Shown: positions 1-16,473, counted from the stretch's first letter. The stretch is DNA of 64,000 nucleotides from Gammaproteobacteria bacterium (GCA_040007735.1 JBDTUL010000001.1:3933-67932); one strand, 5' to 3'. A program made the numbers and translations. Notes: generated by a model not told the origin, from the letters alone.

Positions 1-1
1 G

Positions 2-190
2 CCGGACCAGCCGCGCCGAGTCGTGTTCCAGTGCGGCAGCGGCAAGCGCTCGGCGATGGCCGCAACCGCAAGACTCGCGGCTGGGGCTCCCGGCGCCGCG
101 CATCTCGCGGGCGGAATCGGTGCGTGGATCGCGGCAGGGCTGCCAGTCGTGCACATCGATCCAGCCACCGGCAAGCCGGTGCCTAAGTAG
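2..190 (+). CDS. rhodanese-like sulfurtransferase, C-terminal part (5' end outside window)
   Basis: Frame open from the window edge to TAG at 188-190. Translation ...VVFQCGSGKRSAMAA...AGGIGAWIAAGLPV shows a rhodanese active-site loop (C-x4-R-S). Confidence 0.65.
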   Translation, partial: PDQPRRVVFQCGSGKRSAMAATARLAAGAPGAAHLAGGIGAWIAAGLPVVHIDPATGKPVPK

Positions 191-283
191 AAATGCCGTG
201 GGGCCCGACAAGCCTACGGATGTGAACGAATGCCACGTCCTGAAGAATCCTCGACGATATTCCTGACCGCTACAGGTGCCATC

Positions 284-487
284 ATGACAATCGACCGCAT
301 CGTGCTTGCCTTCGCGGGCACCATGACTCTCCTGAGCCTCGCGCTCGGCTACTACGTCAGCCCTTACTGGCTGCTGCTTGCCGGATTCGTGGGCCTCAAT
401 CTGTTGCAGTCCTCTTTCACGGGGTTCTGCCCGCTCGCGATCATCCTCAAGAAACTCGGCTTCACGCCGGGCGTGGCGTTCAGCTGA
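284..487 (+). CDS. DUF2892 / YgaP-C-terminal-like small membrane protein
   Basis: ORF 230..487, with the likely ATG at 284 (MTIDRIVLAFAGTMTLLSLALG...FTGFCPLAIILKKLG). Two predicted TM helices. The stop at 485-487 abuts the next start at 489. Confidence 0.65.
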   Translation: MTIDRIVLAFAGTMTLLSLALGYYVSPYWLLLAGFVGLNLLQSSFTGFCPLAIILKKLGFTPGVAFS

Positions 488-488
488 T

Positions 489-1574
489 ATGCGCCGCGCA
501 GCGCGGATCGGCCAGTGGGTGAGCTTCGCCGCTACAATGGTGGCGCTCGGCGGCTGTAGCGGGTCGGGACCGAGCTTGCAGCCTGGCGTGCAGTCCACTC
601 CGCTCGACTCCGTCGTGGTCAAAGCCGAGCGCACGCCGCTCGAACGGCGGCTGGATGGCACCATCGAGGCTGTCAACCAAGGTACCGTGGCGGCACAGAC
701 CTCGGGCCGCGTTGCGGCCCTCTTCTATGATGTGAACGACTTCGTGCCTGCGGGCGCGGTCATCGCGCGCCTGCGCGCCACCGAGCAGCGCGTCGGCATG
801 CTGCAGGCAGAAGCAGCCTTGCGCGAAGCGACTGCGCGCGAGGCGGAAGCACAGGCGCGCTACCAGCGAGTGTCAGACATGTACGACCGCAAGGTCGTAG
901 CAAAGGCCATGCTCGACGAAGCAACCGCAAACCGCGACGCTGCGGTGGCACGGCTGGCCGCGGCACGTGCTGGCCTCGAAAGTGCGCGGGAAGGCGTCGC
1001 GTATACAGAAATCCGAGCCCCTTACGCAGGCATCGTGACGAAGCGCAACGTTCAGGTGGGTGAGACCGTCGCCCCGGGCACATCCATCATGAGCGGTCTA
1101 TCCCTGCAGTTCCTGCGAGTTGCTGTGGATGTGCCGCAGTCTATCGTGGAGCAGGTTCGGAACATCCGCAAAGCCGCCGTGTACGTGAACGGGCGCCGCG
1201 TCGAAGCCACGAAGCTCACGGTCTTTCCAGAAGCGTCGACGCCGTCGAACACCTTCCGCGCGCGGCTCGAGCTGCCAGAGAATGCGACAGATCTTTACCC
1301 GGGCATGTTCGTCAAGGTCGGGTTCATCGTCGGCGATGCGGATCGACTTCTGGTGCCGGCCCGCGCGCTGGTCGAGCGCAGCGAGGTCACGGCGGTCTAT
1401 GTCGTCGATGCGAGCGGTCGCACCTCCCTGCGACAGCTGCGCACCGGTCATCGCTTCGACGAGAAGGTCGAGGTGCTGGCCGGGCTTCGCGAAGGTGAGC
1501 GAGTCGCCGTCGACCCGGTCGCCGCCATGAAGCAACTCAAGCCCGTCACCCCGGTCCAGGGCGACGCCAAGTGA
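489..1574 (+). CDS. efflux RND periplasmic adaptor (membrane fusion protein), lipoprotein
   Basis: ORF 378..1574 trimmed to ATG 489. This gives a lipoprotein signal MRRAARIG...VALGGCSG. HlyD-type coiled coil (LQAEAALREATAREAEAQARYQR) followed by beta-barrel regions. Confidence 0.85.
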   Translation: MRRAARIGQWVSFAATMVALGGCSGSGPSLQPGVQSTPLDSVVVKAERTPLERRLDGTIEAVNQGTVAAQTSGRVAALFYDVNDFVPAGAVIARLRATEQRVGMLQAEAALREATAREAEAQARYQRVSDMYDRKVVAKAMLDEATANRDAAVARLAAARAGLESAREGVAYTEIRAPYAGIVTKRNVQVGETVAPGTSIMSGLSLQFLRVAVDVPQSIVEQVRNIRKAAVYVNGRRVEATKLTVFPEASTPSNTFRARLELPENATDLYPGMFVKVGFIVGDADRLLVPARALVERSEVTAVYVVDASGRTSLRQLRTGHRFDEKVEVLAGLREGERVAVDPVAAMKQLKPVTPVQGDAK

Positions 1575-4500
1575 GCGAGCCACTCGGTTTCAGTGGGCGA
1601 CTGGCGGCGCGATTCCTCGGTAATCCACTGTCTCCGTTGATTGCGCTCGCAGCGCTGCTCCTGGGCGTCTTCGCCGTGCTCGTGACGCCACGCGAAGAGG
1701 AGCCGCAGATCGACGTCACGTTCGCGAATATCTTCGTGCCCTTCCCCGGCGCTTCCGCGGAGCAGGTGGAGAACCTGGTCGCTTCGCCCATGGAGAAAGT
1801 CCTGGACGAAATCTCGGGCGTCGAGCACATCGCGTCGGCATCCCGGCCGGGCATGGCTGTGCTCAGCGTGCAGTTCAAGGTGGGTGAGCCGCGCACCGAA
1901 GCGATCGTTCGGCTCTACAACGCCATCTATTCGAACCAGGACTGGCGGCCGGCGAATGCCGGAATCCTCCAGCCTCTCGTCAAGCCGAAAGGCATTGACG
2001 ATGTGCCCATCGTAACGCTGACCCTCTGGACGCAGGATCCCGCCCGCGGCTCGCACGAGCTCGGCCAGGTGGCGCGCTCGATCGAGGCGGAGATCAAGCG
2101 CGTGCCGGGCACGCGAAATGTGTACACGGTGGGCAGTCCGCAAAGCACCGTGCGCGTAGAACTCGATCCGCAGAAGCTCGCAGGCTTCGGCCTCACGGTC
2201 GGCGAGCTCACGCAGGCCCTGCAAGCTGCGAATGTCGTACAGCACGCCGGCGCGCTGGTGGGCGCGGATCACGTTACACCGGTCGACGCCGGTCGCTTCC
2301 TCGCGGATCGTGACGACGTCGCCGGGCTCGTGGTCGGCGCGAGCCAGGGCAAGCCCGTGTTCCTCGAAGACGTCGCCACTATCATCTCCGGCGCGGATCA
2401 GCCCAGCTCTTATGTATGGCTCGGCACCGGCCCGGGCGCGGCCACGAGCGGGCTTCCAGCCATCGCCCATGCCCCCGCAGTCACAATCGCCATCTCAAAG
2501 AAGCCGGGCGAGAACGCCATCGACGTGGCGAACCATGTGGTCCGGCGCGTCGAGCAGCTACGCGGCACTTTCATCCCGGAGGGCATCGAGGCGACCGTCA
2601 CACGCAACTACGGCGTCACCGCGAACGATAAGGCCGTGAAGCTCATTGAAAAGCTGCTCTTCGCCACAGGCTCCGTCGTGCTGCTCGTGGTGCTCACGAT
2701 GGGCCGCCGCGAAGCGGTGGTGGTGGGTGCGGCCGTCGTGGTCACGCTCGCCGCAACCCTCTTTGCCTCATGGGCGTGGGGATTCACCATCAACCGGGTG
2801 TCACTGTTCGCGCTCATTTTCTCCATCGGCATTCTCGTGGACGATGCCATCGTCATCGTGGAGAACATCCATCGGCACATGCGACTGGGTGGCGGCGCAC
2901 TCACGCAAATCATTCCGCGCGCCGTCGACGAAGTGGGCGGCCCGACGATTCTGGCGACGTTTACCGTAATCGCCGCGCTCCTGCCGATGGCCTTCGTCAG
3001 CGGCCTCATGGGCCCATACATGAGCCCCATCCCGATCAACTCCAGCATGGGCATGCTCATCTCGCTCGCCGTGGCGCTCGTCTTTACGCCGTGGATGTGC
3101 CGGAAGCTGCTTGGCTCTCACGCCGTCGCCCATACGGAAGCCGAGAGCGCGTGGCTGCGCAGGTTGTTCGAGCGCTTCCTTCGTCCGTTTCTCGGCGATG
3201 CACCTGCACGCGGCCGCCGCCACAAGCTCTACTGGGGCGTGCTCGCCGCCATCGTGATCGCGGTGGGCCTGACGGTGGTGAAGCTCGTCGTGATGAAGAT
3301 GCTTCCGTTCGACAACAAGTCGGAATTCCAGGTCGTCGTCAATCTGCCGGAAGGCTCCACGCTCGAGACCACCGCACAAGTGCTCGATGAGCTGTCGCAC
3401 GCCGTCGAACAGGTTCCGGAAGTGAGCGACTATCAGGCCTACGCCGGCACCGCCGCGCCGATCAACTTCAACGGGCTCGTGCGCCAGTACTACCTGCGCG
3501 AGAGCCCGGAGCTCGGCGACCTTCAGGTGAACCTGGTCGACAAACATCATCGCTCGCGCAAGAGCCACGACATCGCGCTGGCCGTGCGTCCTGCGCTTGC
3601 GGCCATCGGCAGGAAATACGGCGCATCAGTCCAGGTGGTTGAAGTGCCGCCGGGTCCACCGGTGCTGGCGCCGCTCGTCGCGGAGATCTACGGCCCTAGC
3701 TATCAGGACCAGCGCCGTGTCGCAGCCGAAGTACGCAAGCTCTTCAACGCGACACCGGACATCGTGGATACGGACGACAGCCTCGAAGCACCTGCGGAGC
3801 GCTACATCGTCGAAGTCGACCGGCAGAAGGCCGCGCTCCTCGGCGTTGCGCAGGATCAAGTCGTCCAGACCATCGCCGCCGCGCTCGCAGGCGCCGACGC
3901 AACCTATGTGCACACGGGGCGTGAGCGATATCCCATACCGGTTCGCATCGAACTGCCGGTAGCGGACAAGGCGGACATCGGCTCAATGCTCGCGCTGGAA
4001 GTGCGCACCACGAACGGCGCCTCAGTGCCCCTCTCAGAGCTTGTGACTGTGCGCAAGGCCACGTGGGACGGAGCGATCTACCACAAGGACCTGCTGCCTG
4101 TCGTCTACGTCACGGGCGACATGGCCGGCAAGCTCGACAGCCCGCTCTACGGCATGTTCTCGATGGTCGGAAAGATCAGCCGCGACCCGCCGGGCGGCGC
4201 GCCCATCGCACAACGATTCGTGAGCCAGCCCGACGACCCGAGCTCACTCGCCATCAAATGGGATGGCGAGTGGCAGATCACCTACGAAACTTTCCGTGAC
4301 ATGGGTCTCGCGTACTCGGTGGGCCTCGTGCTCATCTACCTGCTCGTCGTTGCGCAGTTTGGCTCCTACGCGCTGCCGCTCATCATCATGGCGCCCATAC
4401 CGCTCACTATCATCGGCGTGATGCCGGGGCACGCACTGCTCGGCGCGCAGTTCACCGCCACTTCGATGATCGGAATGATCGCGCTGGCGGGCATCATCGT

Positions 4501-4795
4501 GCGCAACTCGATCCTTCTCGTGGACTTCATCGACACGGAGATCAAGACGGGCCGCAGCCTCGAAGACGCCGTGGTGCGCGCGGGAACGATCCGCGCGAAG
4601 CCGATAGCGCTGACCGCACTCGCTGCGATGATCGGCGCGTTTTTCATCCTCGACGACCCGATCTTCAACGGCCTCGCAGTGTCGCTGATTTTCGGCATCC
4701 TGGTTTCGACCGTGCTCACGCTGCTCGTGATCCCGGTTCTTTATTACGCATATCTCAGACGGAAAACCGCGCGCCTCGCGCGCGAGGGGAACTGA
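1571..4795 (+). CDS. efflux RND transporter permease (AcrB/HAE-type)
   Basis: 1074-aa ORF with the 12-TM, two-large-periplasmic-loop layout typical of AcrB-family pumps. Its start overlaps the adaptor stop by 4 nt. Confidence 0.9.
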   Translation: MSEPLGFSGRLAARFLGNPLSPLIALAALLLGVFAVLVTPREEEPQIDVTFANIFVPFPGASAEQVENLVASPMEKVLDEISGVEHIASASRPGMAVLSVQFKVGEPRTEAIVRLYNAIYSNQDWRPANAGILQPLVKPKGIDDVPIVTLTLWTQDPARGSHELGQVARSIEAEIKRVPGTRNVYTVGSPQSTVRVELDPQKLAGFGLTVGELTQALQAANVVQHAGALVGADHVTPVDAGRFLADRDDVAGLVVGASQGKPVFLEDVATIISGADQPSSYVWLGTGPGAATSGLPAIAHAPAVTIAISKKPGENAIDVANHVVRRVEQLRGTFIPEGIEATVTRNYGVTANDKAVKLIEKLLFATGSVVLLVVLTMGRREAVVVGAAVVVTLAATLFASWAWGFTINRVSLFALIFSIGILVDDAIVIVENIHRHMRLGGGALTQIIPRAVDEVGGPTILATFTVIAALLPMAFVSGLMGPYMSPIPINSSMGMLISLAVALVFTPWMCRKLLGSHAVAHTEAESAWLRRLFERFLRPFLGDAPARGRRHKLYWGVLAAIVIAVGLTVVKLVVMKMLPFDNKSEFQVVVNLPEGSTLETTAQVLDELSHAVEQVPEVSDYQAYAGTAAPINFNGLVRQYYLRESPELGDLQVNLVDKHHRSRKSHDIALAVRPALAAIGRKYGASVQVVEVPPGPPVLAPLVAEIYGPSYQDQRRVAAEVRKLFNATPDIVDTDDSLEAPAERYIVEVDRQKAALLGVAQDQVVQTIAAALAGADATYVHTGRERYPIPVRIELPVADKADIGSMLALEVRTTNGASVPLSELVTVRKATWDGAIYHKDLLPVVYVTGDMAGKLDSPLYGMFSMVGKISRDPPGGAPIAQRFVSQPDDPSSLAIKWDGEWQITYETFRDMGLAYSVGLVLIYLLVVAQFGSYALPLIIMAPIPLTIIGVMPGHALLGAQFTATSMIGMIALAGIIVRNSILLVDFIDTEIKTGRSLEDAVVRAGTIRAKPIALTALAAMIGAFFILDDPIFNGLAVSLIFGILVSTVLTLLVIPVLYYAYLRRKTARLAREGN

Positions 4796-4797
4796 AC

Positions 4798-6078
4798 ATG
4801 GCACACATCGTCGTGGTTGGCGCAGGCGTCGGCGGCGTTCCGTGCGCTTACGAGCTTCGCAAGAAACTGGGCAAGGAGCATCGGGTCACGCTCATTGGCT
4901 CGTCGCCCTATTTCGAATTCACGCCATCGAACCCCTGGATCGCGGTGGGCTGGCGCAAGTGCGAACAGACGCGCGTGGAGATGAAGCACCCACTGGAATC
5001 CAAAGGCGTCCAATGGATCGCGGACGCCGTCGAATCGATCGACGCCCCGAAAAACAGCCTGCGCCTGCGCAATGGCGGCGAGGTCGCGTACGACTACCTG
5101 GTCATCGCCACCGGCCCGAAACTGGCCTTCGATGAAGTGCCCGGGCTCGGGCCCTCCGGTTTCACGCAATCCGTCTGCACGCACGAACACGCGTTGCAGG
5201 CGTGGGAGAAGTACCAGGAATTCCTGAAGGATCCGGGGCCCATCATCGTCGGCGCCGCAGGTGGCGCCAGCTGCTTCGGGCCCGCGTATGAGCTCGTGAT
5301 GATCCTCGACGCCGATCTACGCAAACGCAAACTGCGCGACCGCGTGCCCATGACCTTTGTCACGAGCGAGCCCTACATCGGCCACATGGGGCTGGGCGGC
5401 GTCGGCGACAGTAAGGGGCTCATGGAGTCCGAGATGCGGCAGCGGCACATCAAGTGGGTGACGAACGCGAAGGTGTCGAGCGTAACGGCCGGCGAAATGA
5501 AAGTGGTCGAGCACGACGACGAGGGAAAGCCGAAGAAGGAGCACGCACTCCCCTTCAAATACAGCATGGTGATCCCCGCGTTCAAAGGCGTGGATGCCGT
5601 GGCCGGCGTGCCGGAGCTGTGCAATCCGCGCGGCTTCGTGATCATCGATGCGCACCAGCGCTCGAAGAGGTACCAGAACATCTTCTCTGCAGGGGTGTGC
5701 GTGGCCATCCCACCGGTCGAACAGACGCCCGTTCCGACTGGTGCACCGAAAACCGGCTACATGATCGAGTCGATGGTGAGCGCCATCTGCGAGAATATCG
5801 TGGCGGAACTGCAGGGCAAGCCCGCCACCGCCCAGGCCACGTGGAACGCGATCTGCCTTGCGGACTTCGGGGACACCGGCGCGGCGTTTGTCGCCCTGCC
5901 GGAGATTCCCCCACGCAACGTCACCTGGGCGAAAGTGGGCAAGTGGGTGCATCTGGCCAAGGTGGCCTTCGAGAAGTATTTCTTGCGCAAGGTGCGCACG
6001 GGGTCGGTCACGCCGGTGTACGAGAAATACGTGCTCAAGGCGCTCGGCATCGTTTCGCTCAAGCAGGCGCGTCCGTGA
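4798..6078 (+). CDS. sqr: sulfide:quinone oxidoreductase, type I
   Basis: 426 aa. N-terminal FAD fold VVVGAGVGGVP. Full-length resemblance to recalled Acidithiobacillus SQR (FTPSNPWIAVGW, GASCFGPAYE, IPAFKGV, PKTGYMIESMV, HLAKVAFEKYFLRK). The start lies 2 nt after the RND stop. Confidence 0.85.
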   Translation: MAHIVVVGAGVGGVPCAYELRKKLGKEHRVTLIGSSPYFEFTPSNPWIAVGWRKCEQTRVEMKHPLESKGVQWIADAVESIDAPKNSLRLRNGGEVAYDYLVIATGPKLAFDEVPGLGPSGFTQSVCTHEHALQAWEKYQEFLKDPGPIIVGAAGGASCFGPAYELVMILDADLRKRKLRDRVPMTFVTSEPYIGHMGLGGVGDSKGLMESEMRQRHIKWVTNAKVSSVTAGEMKVVEHDDEGKPKKEHALPFKYSMVIPAFKGVDAVAGVPELCNPRGFVIIDAHQRSKRYQNIFSAGVCVAIPPVEQTPVPTGAPKTGYMIESMVSAICENIVAELQGKPATAQATWNAICLADFGDTGAAFVALPEIPPRNVTWAKVGKWVHLAKVAFEKYFLRKVRTGSVTPVYEKYVLKALGIVSLKQARP

Positions 6079-6405
6079 GAAGCGCGGCGCGCTGGTCTGC
6101 CGCGATGCTCACCGCGGTAGTGGTTGCCGGCGCGTTGGCGTCGGGACGGGCCGGGGCTGAGACACTCGATGACGCGTGGCGACTCGCCCTTGAGCACGAT
6201 GATGGGCTGGCCGCAGTAACCGCAGACCTCGAGGGCGCGCGCTCCAGCGAGCGCGCGGCGCGGGCTTCCCGCTGGCCTCGCTCGCCGCGAACGCCGGCTA
6301 TACGCGCTTCAACTCGGCGCCCCAGTTCGACATCGCAGGCTCCGGCGTCGCGCTGCAAGCGCCCCTCTTTTCCGGCGACGACTACGTCTCCGGGGGTGTG
6401 GCGCA
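6075..6405 (+). pseudogene. outer-membrane efflux factor (TolC/OprM family) N-terminal remnant, frameshifted and truncated
   Basis: GTG at 6075 overlaps the sqr stop. Signal-like VRSAARWSAAMLTAVVVAGALASGRAGA is followed by ETLDDAWRLALEHDDGLAAVTADLEGARSSERAARA. After about 6262 the OMF-like sequence continues in another frame (FPLASLAANAGYTRFNSAPQFDIAGSGVALQAPLFSGDDYVSGGVA) and then stops, leaving only about 110 of roughly 450 residues. Confidence 0.55.
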
Positions 6406-6417
6406 GGACACTCCCCT

Positions 6418-6618
6418 ATGTGGTACTTCAGCTGGATTCTGGGATTGGGGTTTGCCATCGCGTTCGGCGTGCCCAACGCCGTCTGGTACGAAATCGGCGG
6501 CGAACGCCTCAAGAGCCGCCCTCGCCTCCCCCCACAACCTGATCAGGAAAACTCATCTTGCATCCCTATCCCCATTCGTATCGTGTCTCGGCGACCGGAG
6601 CCGCCGCAGGCATCGTGA
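6418..6618 (+). CDS. cydX: CydX/YbgT-like small membrane protein (orphan; native stop uncertain)
   Basis: MWYFSWILGLGFAIAFGV... matches the recalled E. coli CydX N-terminus MWYFAWILGTLLACSFGV. No cydA or cydB in the window. The ORF tail past about 35 aa overlaps osmC and is probably not native. Confidence 0.5.
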   Translation: MWYFSWILGLGFAIAFGVPNAVWYEIGGERLKSRPRLPPQPDQENSSCIPIPIRIVSRRPEPPQAS

Positions 6619-7001
6619 CGGTGAGCTCGCCGCAACTTCCGGATCTGGAGACGGCGCCACCGCCGCAGTTCGACGGCCCGGGCAACGTCTGGTCGCCGGA
6701 AGGTCTGCTGTGTGCGGCGGTTGCCGATTGCTTCATCCTGACTTTTCGCGGCGTGAGCCGTGCGGCCCGCTTCGAGTGGCTGACGCTTGAATGCCGTGTC
6801 GAGGGCACTCTGGATCGGGCCGAAGGCGGATCCCGGTTCACACGATTTGTAACGTTCGCAACGCTCACGGTTCCTGAAGGTGCCGACCCAGTCAAAGCGC
6901 GCGCATTGCTGGAGCGTGCCGAGCAAAGCTGCCTGATCTCGAATTCATTGCGGGGCGACCGCACGCTCGAAGCCGAAGTAGTTGCGACTACGCAAGGGTG
7001 A
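6558..7001 (+). CDS. OsmC/Ohr family peroxiredoxin-like protein
   Basis: 147 aa with the OsmC-family pattern (SPEGLLCAAVADCFILTF ... AEQSCLISNSL) and two conserved Cys. Confidence 0.8.
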   Translation: MHPYPHSYRVSATGAAAGIVTVSSPQLPDLETAPPPQFDGPGNVWSPEGLLCAAVADCFILTFRGVSRAARFEWLTLECRVEGTLDRAEGGSRFTRFVTFATLTVPEGADPVKARALLERAEQSCLISNSLRGDRTLEAEVVATTQG

Positions 7002-7138
7002 CGCCTCGATGATTCGGAGACGCGAATACTGTATGACCCCCATTCAGACCGTGGCGTGACGTCCCCATTCGAATCGAATGGGCAACCGGGCGTCATGGAC
7101 GCCTGCAACCCGAGGAAAGGTCCGGGTTCATGACCCGC

Positions 7139-8533
7139 TCAAATGACTTTTGAGTGAGCGAGGCCGTTGCGTGGCGACAGATAGGCGTCGAATACCATTG
7201 CCACCCTGCGCATGAGCAGGCGCCCTGCCCCGGTCACCCCGATGCATCCAGAGCGAACATAGGTGAGTCCCAGGGATTGCAGCTCCTGAAGCCGCTCGAT
7301 CTCGACGCGGAAATAGCGCTTGAAGTCCACTCCAAAGCGCTTGCCAATCTGTGCGCAATCAATGATCTCGTGACACATCAGCTCCTGAATGACGGCCCGG
7401 CGGATGAGATCGTCGTCGCTGAGCTGCACACCCCGTTGCACGGGCAGGCGCCCCGAATCGATCGCCGCGCCATACTCCGGCAGAGTCTTGAAGTTCTGCG
7501 AATAGGTGTTCCCGACTTTTCCGATGGCGCTCACCCCGAGACCTATCAGGTCATGATCGGCGTGTGTGGAATACCCTTGAAAATTTCGCTGCAGAGACTT
7601 GTCACGCTTCGCATTCACCAACTCATCTGTCGGAAGCGCGAAATGGTCCATACCTATGTATACATATCCGGCAGAAGTGAGTCGCTCGATGGTCAGGCCC
7701 AAAAGCTTCAACCGCAGATCCGCGCCGGGCAACTCCGCCGCATTGATTCGTCTCTGCGCCTTGAAGAGGTGCGGCATGTGAGCATAGGCATACACGGCCA
7801 GTCGGTCCGGCCGTGCCTTGATGACCGATTGCAGCGTCCGTTCAAAGCCGGCCAGTGTCTGGCGAGGCAGGCCGTAAATAAGGTCGAAGCTGACGGACTG
7901 AACGCCCGCATGCCGTATCGCTTCCACGACGTGCAGGGTGTCGGCTTCCGGTTGAATGCGGTTCACAGCGTTCTGTACTTCGGGATCGAAGTCCTGCACG
8001 CCGAGGCTCATGCGATTGAATCCCATCGAGGCGAGCGCGTTCACTGAATCGACGGTTACCGTGCGCGGGTCGATCTCGATCGAATACTCCCTGGCTGCGT
8101 CGCTGGCGAGTCCGAAGTGGCGTGACAGCGTGTCCATCAGTGCCGAAAGGTCTGCTTTATCGAGGAACGTTGGCGTCCCGCCCCCGAAGTGCAGCTGATC
8201 GACCTTGCGTCCCCGGTCGAAAAGCTCAGCCTGCATTTCGATCTCACGGCCCAACCGCGACAGGTAGGCAGAGGACCGTGAACGATCGCGCGTGATGACC
8301 CGGTTGCAGCCGCAGTAGAAACAAGGGCTCGAGCAGAACGGGATGTGAACGTAGATCGAAAGGGGGTTCGCTCCGGAGCGCGCGTTGCTGGCTTGCGCAA
8401 CCTGGCGGTAACTTTCTTCACCGAACTGATCAGTGAATTGCACCGCTGTCGGATACGACGTATAGCGCGGCCCAGCGCAATCGCAACGACGAATCAAATC
8501 TGCATCGAATAGCACGGCGTTCATGCTGTTCAT
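7139..8533 (-). CDS. hemN: oxygen-independent coproporphyrinogen III oxidase (radical SAM)
   Basis: GPRYTSYPTA motif, radical-SAM CxxxCxxC (PFCSSPCFYCGC), and a length close to E. coli HemN. The ORF track start at 8572 is a TTG. ATG 8533 (MNSMNAVLFDADLIRR) aligns better with the HemN N-terminus. Confidence 0.9.
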   Translation of the reverse strand: MNSMNAVLFDADLIRRCDCAGPRYTSYPTAVQFTDQFGEESYRQVAQASNARSGANPLSIYVHIPFCSSPCFYCGCNRVITRDRSRSSAYLSRLGREIEMQAELFDRGRKVDQLHFGGGTPTFLDKADLSALMDTLSRHFGLASDAAREYSIEIDPRTVTVDSVNALASMGFNRMSLGVQDFDPEVQNAVNRIQPEADTLHVVEAIRHAGVQSVSFDLIYGLPRQTLAGFERTLQSVIKARPDRLAVYAYAHMPHLFKAQRRINAAELPGADLRLKLLGLTIERLTSAGYVYIGMDHFALPTDELVNAKRDKSLQRNFQGYSTHADHDLIGLGVSAIGKVGNTYSQNFKTLPEYGAAIDSGRLPVQRGVQLSDDDLIRRAVIQELMCHEIIDCAQIGKRFGVDFKRYFRVEIERLQELQSLGLTYVRSGCIGVTGAGRLLMRRVAMVFDAYLSPRNGLAHSKVI

Positions 8534-8685
8534 GGTAGCGGCGGGACCTGGCTCGGACACTACGTAGAACAACGTGGCCGAATGGCGCGCCGTCTAGGTA
8601 TTCCTCCGCAATTGCCGCGAGCGTTTCCGGCGGGAGCTTTGCCGCGCAAGTCTCGCCATGCGAGTAATCCCGACGTCCTGCGCAG

Positions 8686-8838
8686 TTAGGTGTCGCGCGG
8701 CTCCTCGTCCGACTCGTAACCGTGGGCTGCTTCATCCAGGTTCTCGAATTGGCCGGTGTCGACCGCCCAGAACAGTGACCAGACGGCCACTCCGAGCAGC
8801 ACGAGACTCAGCGGGATCAGGACGAACAGGATGTTCAT
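8686..8838 (-). CDS. ccoS: cbb3 oxidase maturation protein CcoS/FixS
   Basis: 50 aa, MNILFVLIPLSLVLLGVAVWSLFWAVDTGQFENLDEAA..., the typical CcoS. Its ATG overlaps the ccoI stop (ATGA). Confidence 0.85.
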   Translation of the reverse strand: MNILFVLIPLSLVLLGVAVWSLFWAVDTGQFENLDEAAHGYESDEEPRDT

Positions 8839-11030
8839 GACACAACCTTCTCTCCCGCGAGCCTTCGCGCATTGAGCACGACGACCAGCGAGCTGACAGA
8901 CATGCCGAGCGCCGCGAGCCACGGCGGCACGAGATCGAGTGCAGCGAGCGGCACGGCAGTGAGGTTGTATGCGAGCGACCAACGCAGGTTCTGCCGGACG
9001 ATGCGAAGCATGCGCCGAGCCGTGCGGATGCCATCTGGAATCACACCCAGGGCATCGTTCAGGAGCAGGAAGTCCGCTGCCGCCTGCGCGATAGCCGAGC
9101 CCTGCCCCATGGCACAAGAGACGTCGGCGGCCGCAAGCGCCGGGCCGTCGTTGACGCCGTCCCCTACTGCGAGCACGCGATTCCCCGCCGCCTGGAGTTC
9201 CCGAATCAGCTCGACCTTTTGAGCCGGCCCGAGACGCGCGGTTGCGTGCTCGATGCGCAAGGCGACACTCGCCGCGTCCACTGCCTGCTGGGCATCACCG
9301 CTAGCCATAACCGCCCTTACGCCGAGCCGCCCGAGTTGCTCGACGGCCGCAAACGCGTCTGGCCGAACCGCTTCGCCGAGTTGGTACACCGCTACCAATC
9401 CAGACTCGTTTCCCAAAAAGATGCCGGGGTCATCCGCGGGCGCTGCGACATCGCTGGAGAGTTCAGACACGAAATCGTGTCTACCGATACGCCAGCGTCG
9501 GTCGCCAATACGACCCGCTACGCCCAATCCGTCCGTCTCGGACAGCTCGACAGCTACGACTTCGGGCAGTGCGCCGTTCGCGAACAAGGCCGCGACAGGA
9601 TGGCTCGACCCGCGCTCCAGCGCCGCCGCTGCCGCTAGTGCCGCGCCTCGGTCCAGTGAGCCAAGCAACGTCGTTCGAACAAGTGATAGGCCGCCGGCGG
9701 TAAGGGTGCCTGTCTTATCCAGCACGACGGCGTCGACTCGAGCAAGACGCTCCAAGGCGTCGGCGCGGGTGACAAGCAACCCCCGCCTGGCAAGTCGCGT
9801 TGAGGCCGCCGCAACGGCCACCGGCGTTGCGAGAGACAGTGCACAGGGGCAAGTCACTACAAGCACAGCCAGCGCAGCCGGAAACGCTCGCGCCGGATCG
9901 AACATGAGCCAGAGGGCGACCACGACGACGCAGACAATCAGACTCGCCGCAATGAACCAGCTCGCTGCGCGATCCGCCGCCCGGGCAATGGCGGGGCGAA
10001 CGCTCTGCGCGCGCTCCAGACGAGCGACGACCGAGGCCAGCGTCGAACCGGCAACACCACACCGCGCGCGTACTCGAATCGCATTACCCACACTGAGGGC
10101 GCCGCCGAGAAGCTGATCGCCAGCGACCCTGCGCTCAGCCTTCGATTCGCCGGTGACGAGTGATTCGTCCACGAGTGCTGTTCCCTCGAGCAGCACACTA
10201 TCGACAGGAATCACTCCGCCCTTCGGGATCTGCAGGATGTCGCCGGCGACGATATTCGAGGTCGGAATCCGGACCGATGTCCCATCCGCATTGACGCGCG
10301 ATACCTGCGCCGGGAGACTGCGCGCGACGGCTTCACTGATTGTGAGACTGCGTTGACGCACTACCATTTCGACGTAACGCCCGGCACCGAGGAAGAAGAT
10401 GAACATCGTCACGGAATCGAAATAGGTCTGCCCATGTCCTCGCACGGTGTTGAAGACGCTAGCGCAGTAGGCAAGCACAAGCGCGAGTGCGACCGGCACA
10501 TCCATTCCCAGCGAGCGGCGCCTTAAGTCCCGCCAGGCGCCAATCAGAAAGGGCGCACCGGAATACAGAAGCACCGGCGTCGTGATCGCCATGGCGACGT
10601 AGCGAAGGTAGGTCGCGATGGCGGGGTCCATTGCTTCAGGCCGGGCCACATACACGCCGAAGACGTACATCATCACTTGCATCATGCCGAGCCCGGCAAG
10701 GCCGATGCGCTTCAACGCGAGGCGGCGTTCCCGCACGAACGCGGCCTCTGCATCCGCACCGGCGAGCGGAATGGGCTTGAATCCGGCGGTGGCGACGGCC
10801 TCGAGAATCCGGACAAGAGGACTACAGGTCGGATCCCAGTCGACGCAGATGCGTGACGTCGCGACGTTCACGGTCACCGCCTCAATGCCGGGTAACGTGC
10901 GCACTGCCCTCTCGATCGAGCGGCTACATGCCGCACAACGGATGCCCTCAGCAGCGAACACTGTGCGGGCGTGCCCGCCAGACTCGTTAGTCCAAAACGC
11001 ATGCGAGCCCAATGCTGCGACGGCGACCAT
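8835..11030 (-). CDS. ccoI: copper-translocating P1B-type ATPase CcoI/FixI
   Basis: 731 aa with an N-terminal metal-binding CAAC, CPC in a TM helix (VVTCPCALSLATP), DKTGTLT and GDGVNDGPAL. Confidence 0.9.
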   Translation of the reverse strand: MVAVAALGSHAFWTNESGGHARTVFAAEGIRCAACSRSIERAVRTLPGIEAVTVNVATSRICVDWDPTCSPLVRILEAVATAGFKPIPLAGADAEAAFVRERRLALKRIGLAGLGMMQVMMYVFGVYVARPEAMDPAIATYLRYVAMAITTPVLLYSGAPFLIGAWRDLRRRSLGMDVPVALALVLAYCASVFNTVRGHGQTYFDSVTMFIFFLGAGRYVEMVVRQRSLTISEAVARSLPAQVSRVNADGTSVRIPTSNIVAGDILQIPKGGVIPVDSVLLEGTALVDESLVTGESKAERRVAGDQLLGGALSVGNAIRVRARCGVAGSTLASVVARLERAQSVRPAIARAADRAASWFIAASLIVCVVVVALWLMFDPARAFPAALAVLVVTCPCALSLATPVAVAAASTRLARRGLLVTRADALERLARVDAVVLDKTGTLTAGGLSLVRTTLLGSLDRGAALAAAAALERGSSHPVAALFANGALPEVVAVELSETDGLGVAGRIGDRRWRIGRHDFVSELSSDVAAPADDPGIFLGNESGLVAVYQLGEAVRPDAFAAVEQLGRLGVRAVMASGDAQQAVDAASVALRIEHATARLGPAQKVELIRELQAAGNRVLAVGDGVNDGPALAAADVSCAMGQGSAIAQAAADFLLLNDALGVIPDGIRTARRMLRIVRQNLRWSLAYNLTAVPLAALDLVPPWLAALGMSVSSLVVVLNARRLAGEKVVS

Positions 11031-11036
11031 GTGCGG

Positions 11037-11570
11037 CTACTCGTTGTGTCCCGAGCCGGCGTCGAGAACCAAACGGCTGAGCGACCCACGCGTGGTCTGA
11101 CGAATGGCCCAACCGTTCACGGCATCGATGAGTTCGAGGCGCCAGTGCCCCTCCACAGCTTGATGGCACTTGCCGGTGTAGAGCACGACTTCGCGGCCGG
11201 CTGCTTTCTCAACGCGCACTCGATCAAAGGTGACGCGCTGGTCGAGTTTCGGTTTGGTCGCATGCGCCAGCAGCAGCAACAATGCGCTCGGCGTGGCTCC
11301 GTCCATCTGCAGGCGCACCTCGCAGCGGCCTGAAGGTCCGAACCCGGAAAGCAAGGCACTCACATGCAGGTCCGCGGCGTGCGCCGCTTGAGTGAAGTCG
11401 CGGTCGAGCTGGAAACCTTCCCAGTGGTACTGCTCGGGCAGCTGTCCATCGGGGTGGTTGAGAGTGAGCACGAGCGACAGAACGCTTGCGACGACAGCCA
11501 CCGCGGGCAGACCCCAGGCGAGCAACAGAACCGGATTGCGTATGACAGACATCGGAGACCTTCCTTTCAT
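11037..11570 (-). CDS. ccoH: CcoH/FixH cbb3 assembly protein
   Basis: 177 aa with one N-terminal TM helix. Position between ccoG and ccoI. The start overlaps the ccoG stop (ATGA). Confidence 0.75.
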   Translation of the reverse strand: MKGRSPMSVIRNPVLLLAWGLPAVAVVASVLSLVLTLNHPDGQLPEQYHWEGFQLDRDFTQAAHAADLHVSALLSGFGPSGRCEVRLQMDGATPSALLLLLAHATKPKLDQRVTFDRVRVEKAAGREVVLYTGKCHQAVEGHWRLELIDAVNGWAIRQTTRGSLSRLVLDAGSGHNE

Positions 11571-12949
11571 TGCGTCGGCGCTATGAAGCGGGCTGTGGCG
11601 TGCGCGACCAGCCGCGGCTCCCGTTCTGCCTGGACGACGAACTCAATGTCCTGTGGACCCATCGGCTCGTAGGCCGGGCGGCGAACTCTGACGGCTGCGG
11701 AATACACTTCCCCGCTAGCCACGTCGAATCGCGCGACGGCCGGATCGAGGCTCAACTCGCCATCGCCGCGGACCGTCACGCGGAAGCGATGCGCTTGCTC
11801 GGTCTTGTTGAGTATCTTGACGTTGTAGACATTCTCGACGCGCCCATCATCCAGCAGCCGATAGAGCGCGTTCCGGTCACGAATGATGTCGACGTCGAGT
11901 GGCGTGCGCATCGCAATGCCGACGCCAAATGCCAGGATGAGAGCTGCAAGCAGTGCCCCGTACACGAGGACACGTGGCCGGAGAACGCGTGATGGCTTGC
12001 GCTCGAGCGCGTTCTGCGTGGTGTAGCGGATGAGCCCGCGCGGGTAGCTCATCTTATCCATGACGGTGTCGCAGGCATCGACGCAGGCCGCGCAGGCAAT
12101 GCACTCGTACTGAAGCCCCTTCCGAATATCTATTCCTGTCGGACAGACCTGTACGCACAACGTGCAATCGACGCAGGCACCCAAGCCGGCCACACCGAGA
12201 TCTGTTCCCCTTCGGCGTGAGCCGCGCGGCTCCCCGCGCTCCTCATCATAGGTCACGATCAGTGTGTCGCGGTCGAACATGGCACTCTGGAAGCGTGCAT
12301 ACGGACACATGTATTTGCACACTTGCTCACGCAGGAAACCGGCGTTCCCATATGTGGCAAAACCATAGAACAGCATCCAGAAAAGCTCCCATGGCCCGAG
12401 GGAAAGGGCCAGGATCTGTGGCGGCAGAGATGCAATGGGGGTGAAGAACCCCACGAAGGTGACGCCGGTCCACAGCGAGAAAGCGATCCAGAGCGCGTGC
12501 TTGAGGACCTTGCGTCCCAGCTTCCGTGCGCTCCAGCCGGGCCTGTCGAGTTTCAAACGCTCGCTGCGCGAGCCCTCCACGAGCTGCTCCATCCACAGGA
12601 ACGTTTCGGTCCAGACGGTTTGTGGGCAGGCGAATCCGCACCACAGCCGGCCTGCGATCGCGGTGAAGAAGAACAGACCGAACGCTGCAATGACCAGCAA
12701 CGCCGTGAGAAAGATAAAGTCCTGCGGCCACATCACGAGCCCAAAGACATAGAACTTTCGCGCGGGCAGATCGAAGAGCACCGCCTGACGGCCGTTCCAA
12801 TGGACCCAGGGCATCAGATAGAAGAGCCCCAGCAGCACCCAGACCGCGAGAGTGCGCAGGCGTGCATAACGGCCTGATACCTCTCGCGGATAGATCTTCT
12901 GCTCCGAGACGTAGTAGCTGTCGGAACCGGAAGTCAGTGGCGCGTTCAC
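11567..12949 (-). CDS. ccoG: CcoG/FixG 4Fe-4S ferredoxin-type membrane protein
   Basis: ORF 11567..13165 trimmed to GTG 12949, which forms a GTGA overlap with the upstream ORF stop. KIYPREVSGRYARLR N-terminus and two CxxCxxCxxxCP ferredoxin motifs (CTLCVQVCP, CIACAACVDAC). Confidence 0.85.
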   Translation of the reverse strand: MNAPLTSGSDSYYVSEQKIYPREVSGRYARLRTLAVWVLLGLFYLMPWVHWNGRQAVLFDLPARKFYVFGLVMWPQDFIFLTALLVIAAFGLFFFTAIAGRLWCGFACPQTVWTETFLWMEQLVEGSRSERLKLDRPGWSARKLGRKVLKHALWIAFSLWTGVTFVGFFTPIASLPPQILALSLGPWELFWMLFYGFATYGNAGFLREQVCKYMCPYARFQSAMFDRDTLIVTYDEERGEPRGSRRRGTDLGVAGLGACVDCTLCVQVCPTGIDIRKGLQYECIACAACVDACDTVMDKMSYPRGLIRYTTQNALERKPSRVLRPRVLVYGALLAALILAFGVGIAMRTPLDVDIIRDRNALYRLLDDGRVENVYNVKILNKTEQAHRFRVTVRGDGELSLDPAVARFDVASGEVYSAAVRVRRPAYEPMGPQDIEFVVQAEREPRLVAHATARFIAPTQ

Positions 12950-13269
12950 GGCTTTCCGCCACTCCGGGCCGACGTGTCGGTATGAGCCATGTAGATAGTG
13001 AGCGCCGCGGAGATTGCCGCCACGAGCCACAAACAGAAGAAGCCGAGCGCGTAGACCGTGCGACGATCGATCCACCACGACGGCAGTTCGCCGCCCTGAA
13101 TGGCGCCCGGGTCGAACAGCGCAAATGTCAGCGTCGTTCCCCCGGCAGCCGCCAGGAATGAACACCAGATCACGACGCCAATAGTGCGTCCGCGCGGCGT
13201 CAGCTCACGCACAGGTGGGGGCAAGCCTGCAGGAGCGCCAGTCGGTTCGGTGTTTGCCGGGCTGCTCAT
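12946..13269 (-). CDS. hypothetical 2-TM membrane protein wedged between ccoP and ccoG
   Basis: 107-aa ORF with 4-nt start/stop overlaps at both ends (ATGA with ccoP, GTGA with ccoG). Two hydrophobic helices. No family recognised. Confidence 0.5.
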   Translation of the reverse strand: MSSPANTEPTGAPAGLPPPVRELTPRGRTIGVVIWCSFLAAAGGTTLTFALFDPGAIQGGELPSWWIDRRTVYALGFFCLWLVAAISAALTIYMAHTDTSARSGGKP

Positions 13270-14204
13270 TGAGCAGGCGTCGGCGTCGCACTCGCGACCG
13301 AGGCCGAAGCGGATGCAGCCCCGCCGCCGAGACTGAGCACGTAGGCCGCAACGAGCTTCGTGCGCACTTCACCCAGGCGCTCCAGGTGCGCGGGCATCTG
13401 GCCCTGCCGTCCATTGGCGATGGTGGCGCGAATCGTCGCCACCGCGCCACCATGCAACCACACGTTGTCTGTCAGGTTCGGCGCGCCGAGCAAAGGATTT
13501 CCCTGACCTCCCGCGCCGTGACATGCCGCGCACAGCTGCCCGAACGTCTGCTTGCCTTCCTCGGCGTTTCCGGCAGGAAGCTTGCGGCCGGACAGGCTCA
13601 TCACATACGTCAGAAGATTCTCGAGGCGCTCGCCGCCCACAATCGGAAGCCACCCCGGCATCACGCCCGTGCGCCCGTTCTGGATTGTGGCCAGCACCGT
13701 TTCTGCCGAGCCGCCCCATAGCCAGTCCTTGTCCGTGAGGTTCGGGAATCCCGGCGCGCCGCGCGCATCGGCGCCATGACAGGCGGCGCAGTTGTTCAGG
13801 AAGAAGTTACGTCCGGTGCGGATCGCCTCCGGATCGTGCACCAGCGCTGCAACTGGCTGTTTTGCGAACGGTGCCAAGGCTCGCTGCAGAACAAGCTCCG
13901 CGTCGCGTGACTCGGCCTCGAACTGCTCGACCTGGCTCCACTTTCGAATGCCCAGGAAATTGCCGAGTCCCGGATAGAGAACCAGATAGCCTAGGCCGAA
14001 CAACACAGTGAGAACGAAGAGTCCGAGCCACCACCGGGGTAATGGCTTGTTGTACTCGGTCAGGTCACCGTCCCAGATGTGTCCCGTCGTTTGTGCGCGC
14101 TTCTCCTCACCCCGGCTGCGACTCGTCCACCACAGCAGCCACAGCGCGGCCGCGATGTTCAACAGCGTGGGAATGGCAATGAGCGCGCTGGTGAGGGAGC
14201 TCAT
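13266..14204 (-). CDS. ccoP: cbb3 oxidase subunit III, diheme cytochrome c
   Basis: 312 aa with an N-terminal TM helix and two CxxCH motifs (CAACHG twice). Confidence 0.9.
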   Translation of the reverse strand: MSSLTSALIAIPTLLNIAAALWLLWWTSRSRGEEKRAQTTGHIWDGDLTEYNKPLPRWWLGLFVLTVLFGLGYLVLYPGLGNFLGIRKWSQVEQFEAESRDAELVLQRALAPFAKQPVAALVHDPEAIRTGRNFFLNNCAACHGADARGAPGFPNLTDKDWLWGGSAETVLATIQNGRTGVMPGWLPIVGGERLENLLTYVMSLSGRKLPAGNAEEGKQTFGQLCAACHGAGGQGNPLLGAPNLTDNVWLHGGAVATIRATIANGRQGQMPAHLERLGEVRTKLVAAYVLSLGGGAASASASVASATPTPAQ

Positions 14205-14353
14205 GAACGAATCTCACCGTCTTCTTCGAGCGGAAGCCGAGCGGCAGCGTCGAACCGCGCGCGGCGCCGGTCGCTGAAGGCCCACACCCACATGCCGACA
14301 AAAAGCACGATCAGAATCGCGGTGACGACGCCGCTCAATGTTCCGGCACTCAT
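14201..14353 (-). CDS. ccoQ: cbb3 oxidase subunit IV CcoQ
   Basis: 50 aa, MSAGTLSGVVTAILIVLFVGMWVWAFSDRRRARFDAAARLPLEED, trimmed from ORF 14201..14470. The stop overlaps the ccoP start. Confidence 0.75.
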   Translation of the reverse strand: MSAGTLSGVVTAILIVLFVGMWVWAFSDRRRARFDAAARLPLEEDGEIRS

Positions 14354-14378
14354 CGCTGTGTCCTCGGTAAGGTGTTCA

Positions 14379-14987
14379 TCAGTGCCACTGCTTCGAGGCA
14401 AGCCCGAGCCCCTGCAGGTAGGCGATGAGTGCTTCCATCTCGGTCTTTCCCTCGACCGCCGCCGGAGCACCTGCGAGGTCGGCGTCGGTATAGGGCACGC
14501 CGAGCTTGCGTAGCACCCGCATCTTCACCGGAAGCTCCTGCGGATCAACCTTTGCGTCCGCGAGCCAGGCGTACCGAGGCATGTTCGACTCCGGGACGAC
14601 GTCGCGAGGGTTCGCAAGATGCACACGATGCCATTCGTCGCTGTATCGCCCGCCGACACGCGCAAGGTCCGGGCCGGTGCGCTTCGACCCGAATTGGAAC
14701 GGATGGTCATACACGGACTCGCCCGCCACGGAATAGTGGCCGTAGCGCTCGGTCTCCGCGCGCAGCGGTCGAATCATCTGCGAGTGGCAACCGTAGCAGC
14801 CCTCGCGAACGTAGATGTCGCGGCCGGCGAGCTCCAGTGCCGGATAGGGCTTTACTCCGGGCGCGGCGTGAGTCACCTGGCTGGAAAGATAGAGCGGAAT
14901 GATCTCGACCATCCCGCCGACGCTGATCACAACCGCGATCAGAATGCCCATCAGCCCGGCGCGCTTCTCGATGATTTCGTGTTTCAC
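14379..14987 (-). CDS. ccoO: cbb3 oxidase subunit II, monoheme cytochrome c
   Basis: 202 aa with an N-terminal TM helix and a [11 protein letters not shown] heme motif. Confidence 0.9.
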
Positions 14988-15006
14988 GTAGTCGTTCCCC
15001 TGCCCA

Positions 15007-16473
15007 TCACGCCGGCTGCGCTACGGGCACATCGATCGTAGCGCCACGGCTTTCCCGGATCGTCCGGCGGACGTTGTAGGCCATGATGAACATGCCACCG
15101 AGCACCAGCAGTCCACCGCCGAGCCGCACGATGTAGTACGGGTACGTTGCCTTGAGCGCTTCGACGAATGTGTAGGTGAGCGTTCCATCGCTATTGGTGG
15201 CGCGCCACATGAGGCCCTGCATTACCCCGGCCACCCACATGGCGGCGACGTATAGAACGATGCCCAGCGTCGTGATCCAGAAGTGCCAGTCGATGAGGCG
15301 CGTGCTCCACATGCTCGTGCGGCCGTACAGGCGCGGGATCATCACGTAGAGCGATCCCACCGTCGTCATCGCCACCCAGCCCAGCGCGCCGGAGTGAACG
15401 TGACCGATGGTCCAGTCCGTGTAGTGAGACAACGCGTTGACGGTCTTGATCGACATCATTGGCCCTTCGAAGGTCGACATGCCGTAGAACGAGAGAGCGA
15501 CGATCAGGAATTTGAGGATGGGATCCGTGCGCAACTTATGCCACGCGCCGGAGAGCGTCATCATGCCGTTGATCATGCCGCCCCAGGACGGCGCAAGCAG
15601 AATCAGCGAGAACACCATGCCGATCGACTGAGCCCAGTCCGGCAACGTGGTGTAGTGCAGATGATGCGGGCCAGCCCACATGTAGATGGAAATGAGCGCC
15701 CAGAAGTGCACGATCGACAGCCGATACGAATACACAGGGCGGCCAGCCTGCTTCGGAATGAAGTAATACATCATCCCGAGAAAGCCGGTGGTCAGGAAAA
15801 AGCCCACGGCATTGTGTCCATACCACCACTGCACCATCGCATCGACGGTGCCGGCGTACGCGGAGTACGACTTGGTGAGCGAGACAGGCAACGCAGCGCT
15901 GTTCACGATGTGCAGCACCGCCGTCGTGACGATGAACGAGGCGAAGAACCAGTTGGCCACGTAGATATGCGACACGCGTCGCTTGATCAGCGTGCCGAAG
16001 AACACAACCAGATACGCGACCCAGACGATGGCGAGAAGAATGTCGATGGGCCACTCGAGCTCTGCGTATTCCTTGCTGCTCGTGATCCCTAAAGGCAAGG
16101 TGATCGCTGCGAGAACGATGACGGCCTGCCATCCCCAGAACGTGAAAGACGCCAGTGCGTCGGAGAACAGCCGCACGTGACACGTGCGCTGGACCACGTA
16201 ATAAGACGTGGCAAACAGCGCCGAGCCGCCAAATGCGAAGATCACCGCATTGGTGTGCAGCGGACGCAGCCGCCCGTATGCGAGCCATGGAAGGCCCAGA
16301 CTCAGGTCCGGCCAGATCAGCTCCGCGGCAATGAGCGCACCAACCGCCATGCCGACGATGCCCCATACGATGGTCATCGCGGCGAACTGCCTGATGACCT
16401 GGTCGTTGTAGGTCGTCGCTGCCGCCGGGGCGACAGGCGCTTGCGCCAGGACGTCGGCGGTAATGGCATTCAC
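15007..16473 (-). CDS. ccoN: cbb3 oxidase subunit I
   Basis: 488 aa, polytopic heme-copper oxidase subunit I pattern ([29 protein letters not shown]). Confidence 0.95.

Follow-up and report, generated by a model that had tools for sequence, protein, structure and literature searches.

The present analysis concerns a sulfide:quinone oxidoreductase (SQR) gene that lies within the operon of an efflux pump from the RND (resistance-nodulation-division) family in a Gammaproteobacteria bacterium (GCA_040007735.1 JBDTUL010000001.1:3933-67932). The whole stretch of 64,000 nucleotides (64 kb) is called the window and all coordinates refer to it; numbers such as L001 denote the relative loci and contigs compared with it. 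At 284-6078, the map of open reading frames (ORFs) and the sequence place four genes on one strand, for a DUF2892 protein, a membrane fusion protein (MFP), the RND permease and a type I SQR; successive genes are separated by +1, -4 and +2 nucleotides (nt). A preceding description made from the DNA alone (the sequence-only reading) had given the gene order as a partial rhodanese gene, DUF2892, MFP, RND, sqr and a partial gene for an outer membrane factor (OMF). All its coordinates, junctions and gene identities stood up to comparison with Pfam, NCBIfam and PDB. Only its last gene has to be seen differently, which is not merely cut by an end coordinate and is a pseudogene remnant.

The first of the four genes (284..487, + strand) encodes a DUF2892/YgaP-like membrane protein of 67 amino acids with two helices, recognised by Pfam PF11127 (46 bits) and by similarity to the transmembrane (TM) domain of YgaP (PDB 2MPN, E = 1.7e-6). 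Its best start is the ATG at 284 and its stop the TGA at 485-487; the 41 homologues begin with M-T/S-I-D-R, and the cysteine of a TGFCP motif is invariant in 41/41 pump-linked homologues. One nt past this stop (TGAtATG, 485-491), the ATG at 489 opens the MFP gene (489..1574, +). Its product is a periplasmic adaptor lipoprotein with the lipobox LGGC, which matches TIGR01730 (RND_mfp) with 195 bits against a cut-off of 94.9 as well as HlyD_D23, and is 75% identical to its counterpart in L001. The permease gene (1571..4795, +) starts with the GTG at 1571, in a 4-nt GTGA overlap with the end of the MFP gene, and encodes 1074 amino acids, of which residues 23-1059 are covered by Pfam ACR_tran (506 bits). 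The sqr gene (4798..6078, +; 426 amino acids) begins with the ATG at 4798, 2 nt past the RND stop, and its Shine-Dalgarno sequence GAGGGG (4785-4790) is located inside the 3′ end of the permease gene. At this extreme end of the RND gene there is also a GC-rich hairpin, CCGCGCGCCTCGCGCGCGA, at 4767-4785 (4767..4790 on the + strand together with the Shine-Dalgarno sequence), which abuts the sqr ribosome-binding site and could be a candidate modulator of sqr translation or mRNA stability. Finally, a GTG at 6075, overlapping the sqr stop (GTGA), opens the reading frame of the OMF gene.

The SQR aligns over its full length to the structures of the Acidithiobacillus ferrooxidans enzyme (3SZ0/3T2Z, 552 bits over residues 2-423) and with 396 bits to that of Aquifex (3HYV). 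The motif VVVGAGVGG for binding of flavin adenine dinucleotide (FAD) is found at residues 5-13, and C127 (SVCTH), C159 (GASCFGP) and C353 (NAICLAD) align to the redox cysteines C128, C160 and C356 of A. ferrooxidans. The ratio of nonsynonymous to synonymous substitution rates (dN/dS) against the nearest relatives is 0.08-0.16 for DUF2892, MFP, RND and SQR (SQR 0.08-0.13; DUF2892 0.15 against L001); because of these low values, the four genes can be said to be under purifying selection and to have been kept as coding genes over most of the divergence from these relatives. A search of positions 1-7300 revealed no sigma-70 promoter and, on the + strand, no terminator-like site in the intergenic junctions, hits of this type being confined to the inside of genes or to the opposite strand.

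The adjacency of sqr and pump was followed in two sets of loci. The first comprised 80 loci anchored on RND orthologues of 57-81% identity, taken from a scan of one genome per species, with neighbours detected by tblastn using the window proteins; here the nearest relatives are Steroidobacteraceae metagenome-assembled genomes (MAGs). In 22/80 of these loci a type I sqr is found no more than 10 kb away, and DUF2892 is present in 40/80; where both flanks extend over 5 kb or more, the count for sqr is 19/51. The second set consisted of 80 metagenome contigs anchored on SQR (64-88% identity), and pump genes were found on 54/80 of them, or on 17/22 with at least 4 kb on both flanks. At 70% SQR identity or more, 27 of the 28 contigs are pump-linked, L089 being the sole exception. 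A rough estimate, assuming 1-2 sqr genes among ~4,000 genes and ~20 genes in a neighbourhood of 20 kb, gives a chance expectation of ~1% or less for sqr near the pump. The order RND>SQR>OMF is far beyond chance; it recurs in dozens of independent contigs, in L002 also with a 4-nt overlap of SQR and OMF. The co-occurrence check proposed along with the sequence-only reading thus shows that sqr truly belongs to the pump operon as one of its conserved parts, and an absence of any link between orthologous pumps and sqr, named beforehand as the outcome that would speak against this, is clearly not what we see.

The linkage is retained in at least five gene orders, which track RND subclades and are distributed over Alpha-, Beta- and Gammaproteobacteria. 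The window belongs to a Steroidobacteraceae-like clade with DUF2892>MFP>RND>SQR>OMF (order A). In Lysobacterales we find arsR(-) / SQR>DUF2892>MFP>RND (order B), in Azospira and Gallionella MFP>SQR>RND>DUF2892 (order C), in Burkholderiales MFP>RND>DUF2892>(trxC/OMF)>SQR (order C′), and in a further group RND<MFP<DUF2892<arsR / >SQR (order E). On plasmid p2 of Azospirillum brasilense (L162, NZ_CP032341.1 328641-338604), SQR<DUF2892< / >MFP>RND>rhodanese is followed by a two-cysteine ArsR on the opposite strand; SQR and RND are 55% and 44.5% identical to those of the window. This is an annotated module of a cultured strain in which trxC is present, SQR is labelled merely as 'FAD-dependent oxidoreductase' and the MFP is apparently split into two ORFs. 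Subclade D of the permease has MFP>RND only, except in L034 (Halothiobacillaceae), where sqr lies directly upstream of the MFP gene. Several members of this subclade (L017, L019, L024, L030, L054) show, after RND, a conserved LysR regulator, a small ORF without Pfam match and a transporter of the AI-2E family. Taken together, DUF2892, MFP and RND appear to form the core of the module, and SQR joins it in roughly half of the loci that have DUF2892.

The classification of the pump was based on family models, structures and a tree. The permease stays below every NCBIfam cut-off, scoring best with NF033617 (MdtB/C-like, 470 vs 1250), followed by 308 vs 940 for TIGR00915 of the hydrophobe/amphiphile efflux family HAE-1 and 261 bits vs 701 for TIGR00914 of the heavy metal efflux (HME) family. 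Among solved structures, those of TriC, MexK and MdtB come nearest (~235-240 bits), and in alignments the permease is 22-23% identical to AcrB, MdtB, MdtC and CusA of E. coli. The relay residues D424/D425, R978, R1008 and T1015 correspond to D407/D408, K940, R971 and T978 of AcrB and are invariant in the clade, or nearly so in the case of R978. Residue 978 in TM10, at the position of Lys940 of AcrB, is arginine in 79/81 clade members and is a signature of the clade. At the positions of the methionines 573/623/672 of CusA we find V589, F633 and a gap, and at those of E939/K984 of CusA we find R978 and I1012; TM4 carries the HAE-type DD pair where CusA has D-A. The Phe cluster of AcrB is not conserved. 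In a neighbour-joining tree rooted on CusA, the clade of the window permease is sister to AcrB+MdtBC. Placed relative to HAE and HME, as had been suggested with the sequence-only reading, the pump is therefore assigned to a deep RND clade that is HAE-like, sister to HAE-1 and predicted not to transport metals, since the AcrB-type relay is kept and both the Met triad and the E939/K984 pair of CusA are absent. Its sequence gives away no substrate.

Downstream of sqr, the remnant of the OMF gene (6075..6417, +) covers approximately codons 1-115 of ~435, as seen in tblastn searches with the intact OMFs of L002 and L010, in DNA alignment and in the translations. Codons ~1-68 are in frame at 6075-6277 and codons ~69-115 have moved to another frame. 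In accordance, tblastn with intact orthologous OMFs detects residues ~1-68 at 6078-6278 and residues ~71-117 in the other frame at 6278-6418, and a DNA alignment with L001, L010 and L002 locates a 1-nt deletion after CGCTGGCC (6277/6278). Homology to the OMF stops at ~6418, and no further sequence of the module OMF occurs anywhere in the 64-kb window. The OMF gene of the window is a pseudogene remnant that was frameshifted and then truncated; therefore the pump, if working, must borrow a channel encoded elsewhere. Intact OMF orthologues, which belong to Pfam OEP, are present in L001, L002, L010, L025, L081, L083 and others. Among the closest relatives, L001 (81% RND identity) has arsR(-)/DUF2892-MFP-RND-SQR-OMF and L081 (88% SQR identity) RND′-SQR-OMF-osmC. 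In L082 (87% SQR identity), with RND′-SQR-osmC, the OMF is traceless (L082 1749-1762); here the dedicated channel has been lost independently. The closest relatives thus display both the ancestral state and variability at the OMF end.

At exactly the point where the OMF homology stops, an orphan cydX-like small ORF starts (6418..6618, +; Pfam YbgT_YccB, 47 bits; 72% DNA identity to cydX of L010); no cydAB genes are present in the 64-kb window. This junction is likely to have arisen by duplication and deletion or by illegitimate recombination, because in L010 and L092 a cydABX-arsR2-rhodanese arrangement lies directly upstream of the module. One scenario considered is a tandem duplication reaching from cydX to OMF codon ~115 with a later deletion. 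The next gene codes for an OsmC-family peroxiredoxin-like protein (6558..7001, +; Pfam OsmC, 53 bits); among the closest relatives the link of osmC to the module is a loose one, the gene being 3′ of the OMF gene in L081 and L108, directly behind sqr in L082 and upstream in L001, L010 and L097. Directly downstream, at 7139-16473 on the - strand, the window contains hemN and genes for a CcoI-like P-type ATPase, FixG/CcoG, CcoP and CcoN, an assembly and structural cluster of a cbb3-type oxidase. Genes for cytochrome bd oxidase (cydAB/cydX) recur at the flanks of the module in L010, L036, L039, L044, L045 and L092. The bd oxidase is a sulfide-insensitive terminal oxidase, and its genes beside the module may belong to a wider sulfide-stress island.

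The upstream end of the module was compared with relatives in the same way. The window begins within a rhodanese gene, of which the 3′ end is present (62 codons plus stop, 2..190, +; Pfam Rhodanese, 22.5 bits, and translation). The C-terminal fragment at 2-187, with its stop at 188-190, keeps the active-site loop FQCGSGKRS (CGSGKRS). Rhodanese homologues adjoin the module in L010, L026, L036, L076, L092 and L162. By neighbour counts in the relatives, an ArsR-family regulator lies beside the module in 19 loci and a second type in 8 more; other common neighbours are thioredoxin-2 (11 loci), CMD/AhpD-like proteins, rhodanese and OMFs of the OEP family. The ArsRa regulators of the relatives have both sensing cysteines in 21/21 cases, and two cysteines define the sulfane-sulfur sensors of the SqrR/BigR/YgaV type (PMC12423496). 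Between the divergent two-cysteine arsR and the first module gene of 14 loci, an AT-rich promoter/operator-like element was detected with the consensus ~TTGCTAAATTAGCA-N4-CTAATATAAT, in which -35/-10-like hexamers overlap the palindrome CTAAWTTAG (L001 8467-8650, L002 ~8519, L010 ~8641, L025, L083, L092, L097, L106, L110, L112, L115, L116, L129 and L136). The window yields no match to a motif containing this palindrome when up to 3 mismatches are allowed, and no two-cysteine ArsR is encoded within its 64 kb. In L010 and L092, cydABX and then an arsR2-rhodanese unit stand directly upstream of the module, and by analogy the window module may be fused to such a unit. Both ends of the module show rearrangement; it has lost the divergent regulator together with the operator and now lies 93 nt behind the rhodanese gene. 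Neither this loss nor the frameshift and truncation of the OMF gene had been noticed in the sequence-only reading. Betaproteobacterial modules (L062, L066, L067, L069, L072, L074, L077, L078) carry another type of ArsR (ArsRb) with a conserved motif LCDLVCG at the C-terminus and no alpha-2 cysteine, and its sequence suggests a different sensing chemistry.

The statement that no such arrangement had been described does not hold. An operon of the same kind, Dsui_3440-3443 of Azospira (Dechlorosoma) suillum PS, comprises genes for a hypothetical protein, RND, SQR and MFP and was the only one that Bar-seq singled out in cells oxidising sulfide (Mehta-Kolte et al., mBio 2017, PMC5358917). In RNA-seq with sulfide its genes rose from log2 values of ~1-4 to ~8.6-10.6, an induction of more than 100-fold, and the most strongly induced transcript of all came from a second DUF2892 gene (PMC5358917). 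In addition, a survey of the neighbourhoods of two-cysteine ArsR sensors names RND pumps, sqr and rhodanese among the genes nearby and holds it likely that the RND proteins transport sulfur compounds (Li et al., Mol Microbiol 2025, PMC12423496); its Table S1 places RND genes beside sqrR of Rhodobacter capsulatus and many alphaproteobacterial homologues. The arrangement is thus known in outline from one experimental report and one neighbourhood survey. Our literature searches on the export of polysulfide or zero-valent sulfur (S0) by RND pumps, or on sqr together with an efflux RND transporter, returned nothing relevant, and almost no literature was found on DUF2892.

A functional coupling of SQR and pump is well supported by comparative genomics. 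Our best explanation, taken as a whole and including the export of S0, is that the window carries one copy of a sulfide-stress module that is widespread in Proteobacteria and ancestrally had its own OMF; we rate it at not quite an even chance. It starts from observed synteny, selection, regulator type and the sulfide induction of a homologue. For the mechanism itself, export of the S0 or polysulfide made by SQR through the co-encoded pump is the best-supported possibility, suggested by synteny and co-regulation, and we would call it slightly short of probable. SQR would oxidise sulfide at the inner membrane, and its hydrophobic product, zero-valent sulfur (S8, polysulfanes), would enter the membrane or the periplasm. 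S8 or short polysulfides have been described as SQR products (PMC5358917), and a periplasmic location is reported only for the SQR of R. capsulatus (Schutz 1999, cited in PMC9995734); for the window enzyme such a topology is presumed. The RND pump would then take up this presumed substrate from the outer leaflet or the periplasm and expel it via an OMF, which would prevent a build-up of sulfane sulfur in the envelope. The DUF2892 protein with its invariant cysteine, and partners of the rhodanese, TrxC and OsmC type, might handle or buffer sulfane sulfur. The most far-reaching form of this proposal, in which DUF2892-MFP-RND(-OMF) would be a dedicated exporter of SQR-made zero-valent sulfur (S8/polysulfide), a new class of inorganic RND substrate and the missing route of S0 past the outer membrane in Gram-negatives without sulfur globule storage, is tentative and in our view rather doubtful.

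Several observations weigh against sulfur export. About half of the closest pump orthologues (subclade D, of Chromatiales-type sulfur oxidisers) have neither sqr nor DUF2892 nearby, and some sulfur oxidisers of this type store S0 in the periplasm. No cysteine that could serve as a candidate persulfide relay is conserved among the 81 RND orthologues. The residues of the putative RND pocket are not especially hydrophobic, a weak line of evidence that depends on a 22% identity alignment to AcrB. The window itself has a defunct OMF gene and neither the regulator nor the operator. Deletion of sqr or of the whole operon in A. suillum left the rate of perchlorate-dependent sulfide oxidation unchanged (PMC5358917), an assay which does not probe tolerance or S0 export. 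The topology of SQR is unsettled, and the enzyme of R. capsulatus also makes cytoplasmic persulfides (PMC9995734). We found no paper in which the substrate of the pump was tested, and no transport datum for any member of the pump clade.

The strongest competing explanation is co-regulation without a shared substrate. The pump would then export stress compounds or xenobiotics, for instance organosulfur toxins or antibiotics of sulfidic habitats, while sulfide or sulfane sulfur acts as the cue and SQR detoxifies in parallel. Sulfane sulfur is a known inducer of MarR, MexR and OhrR, which regulate multidrug resistance (MDR) pumps, the pumps of subclade D occur without sqr or DUF2892, and the permease has no sulfur-specific residues. 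However, the linkage outlasts at least five independent changes of gene order, some of which place sqr between the genes for MFP and RND or, with codons that overlap, between those for RND and OMF, and this would be unusual for co-regulation alone. Moreover, nearly all of the closest SQRs (27/28) are pump-linked and the pump clade stands apart from every curated MDR family. We consider this explanation unlikely, though to be taken seriously.

The next explanation concerns the window copy only and is compatible with any reading of the family. Here the module would be a decaying relic, its pump part poorly expressed or non-functional and SQR alone useful. The frameshifted and truncated OMF gene fits such a decay, as do the lack of a two-cysteine ArsR, of the operator and of a second OMF of the family within 64 kb, and the clean loss of the OMF in the relative L082. 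Against this stand the full length of DUF2892, MFP, RND and SQR with dN/dS values of 0.08-0.16, and the many clade members that naturally have no adjacent OMF, many RND operons relying on a shared outer-membrane channel. Moreover, an arsR-rhodanese promoter may be situated just upstream of the window, as in L010 and L092. A relic in this sense is rather improbable.

The authors of the A. suillum study guessed in their discussion that the operon exports metal sulfides (PMC5358917). More generally, the pump might remove thiophilic metals or metal-sulfide complexes turned toxic by sulfide. The MFP is indeed weakly similar to adaptors of the CzcB/CusB type and the permease has several invariant histidines, whereas the DD pair in TM4 is of the HAE type, the Met triad and E939/K984 of CusA are not matched, the HME model is missed by a wide difference (261 vs 701) and no metal sensor or chaperone genes recur near the module. 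This makes metal export very unlikely. That the adjacency of sqr and pump is a strain-specific rearrangement due to chance, as the visible rearrangement of the locus at both ends might suggest, has practically no probability left and was rejected, because the linkage is conserved in the RND-anchored and the SQR-anchored set, across RND subclades and three proteobacterial classes, with RND>SQR>OMF in dozens of independent contigs.

Sulfur export by the module would bear on a gap in present knowledge. How insoluble sulfur made by SQR exits Gram-negative cells has been described as unknown, and the origin of the extracellular sulfur globules of R. capsulatus was likewise stated to be unknown, perhaps tied to the periplasmic SQR (Shimizu et al. 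2023, PMC9995734). A pump clade tied to type I SQR, induced by sulfide in one tested organism and usually under a repressor of the persulfide-sensor type is a concrete and testable candidate for this exit, and the reading as an S0 exporter would be of high interest if true. The linkage also provides a first way into the function of DUF2892 proteins. The broken OMF gene and the missing regulator of the window indicate that the module can be remodelled with its core kept. The value of the present analysis lies in showing how broad and how tight the linkage is, in placing the pump as HAE-like and not metal-type, and in listing tractable hosts, namely Azospira suillum PS, Azospirillum brasilense and strains of Lysobacter, Luteimonas or Aerolutibacter. 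The window locus itself adds a new member, damaged to some extent, to a kind of operon that is known but has hardly been characterised.

In comparison with known systems, the window SQR resembles the type I enzymes of A. ferrooxidans and Aquifex aeolicus in its FAD motif and its three catalytic cysteines; these are not known to be encoded inside pump operons. With the HAE-1 pumps TriABC-OpmH, MexJK, MdtABC and AcrAB-TolC, the window clade shares 12 TM segments of the ACR_tran family, the D-D/(K->R)/R/T relay, a lipoprotein MFP and, in intact relatives, an OEP channel. It differs from them in an identity of only 22-23%, scores under the family cut-offs, a Phe cluster that is not conserved and the replacement of the TM10 lysine by arginine. 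CusCFBA is also a tripartite RND system, with a comparable identity of 22% between the permeases, but the Met triad and the relay residues E939/K984 are absent from that of the window. In E. coli ygaV-ygaP, a sulfide-responsive regulator of the ArsR type is combined with a rhodanese fused to a DUF2892 TM domain. The window likewise has a rhodanese followed by DUF2892, but as two separate ORFs 93 nt apart and not as a YgaP-type fusion, and its DUF2892 gene leads an RND-SQR operon. The regulons of the SqrR/BigR/YgaV/sHdrR type are paralleled by the relatives of the window, where the module is divergently paired with an ArsR having two sensing cysteines, whereas the window is without this regulator. 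In the survey of Li et al. (2025), the embedding of SQR in a pump operon and DUF2892 were not described; among its alphaproteobacterial RND proteins, we checked the clade for Azospirillum. The closest counterpart is Dsui_3440-3443, which like the window combines RND, SQR and MFP in one operon with a small protein, hypothetical in strain PS and DUF2892 in the Azospira MAG L075. The sequences compared are those of this congeneric MAG; it has the order MFP>SQR>RND>DUF2892, and its RND and SQR are 61% and 64% identical to those of the window. The betaproteobacterial module is regulated by ArsRb, unlike the ArsRa of the window's relatives. No OMF is reported for Dsui_3440-3443, whereas the window retains the remnant of one, and sqr lies between MFP and RND in Azospira but between RND and OMF in the window.

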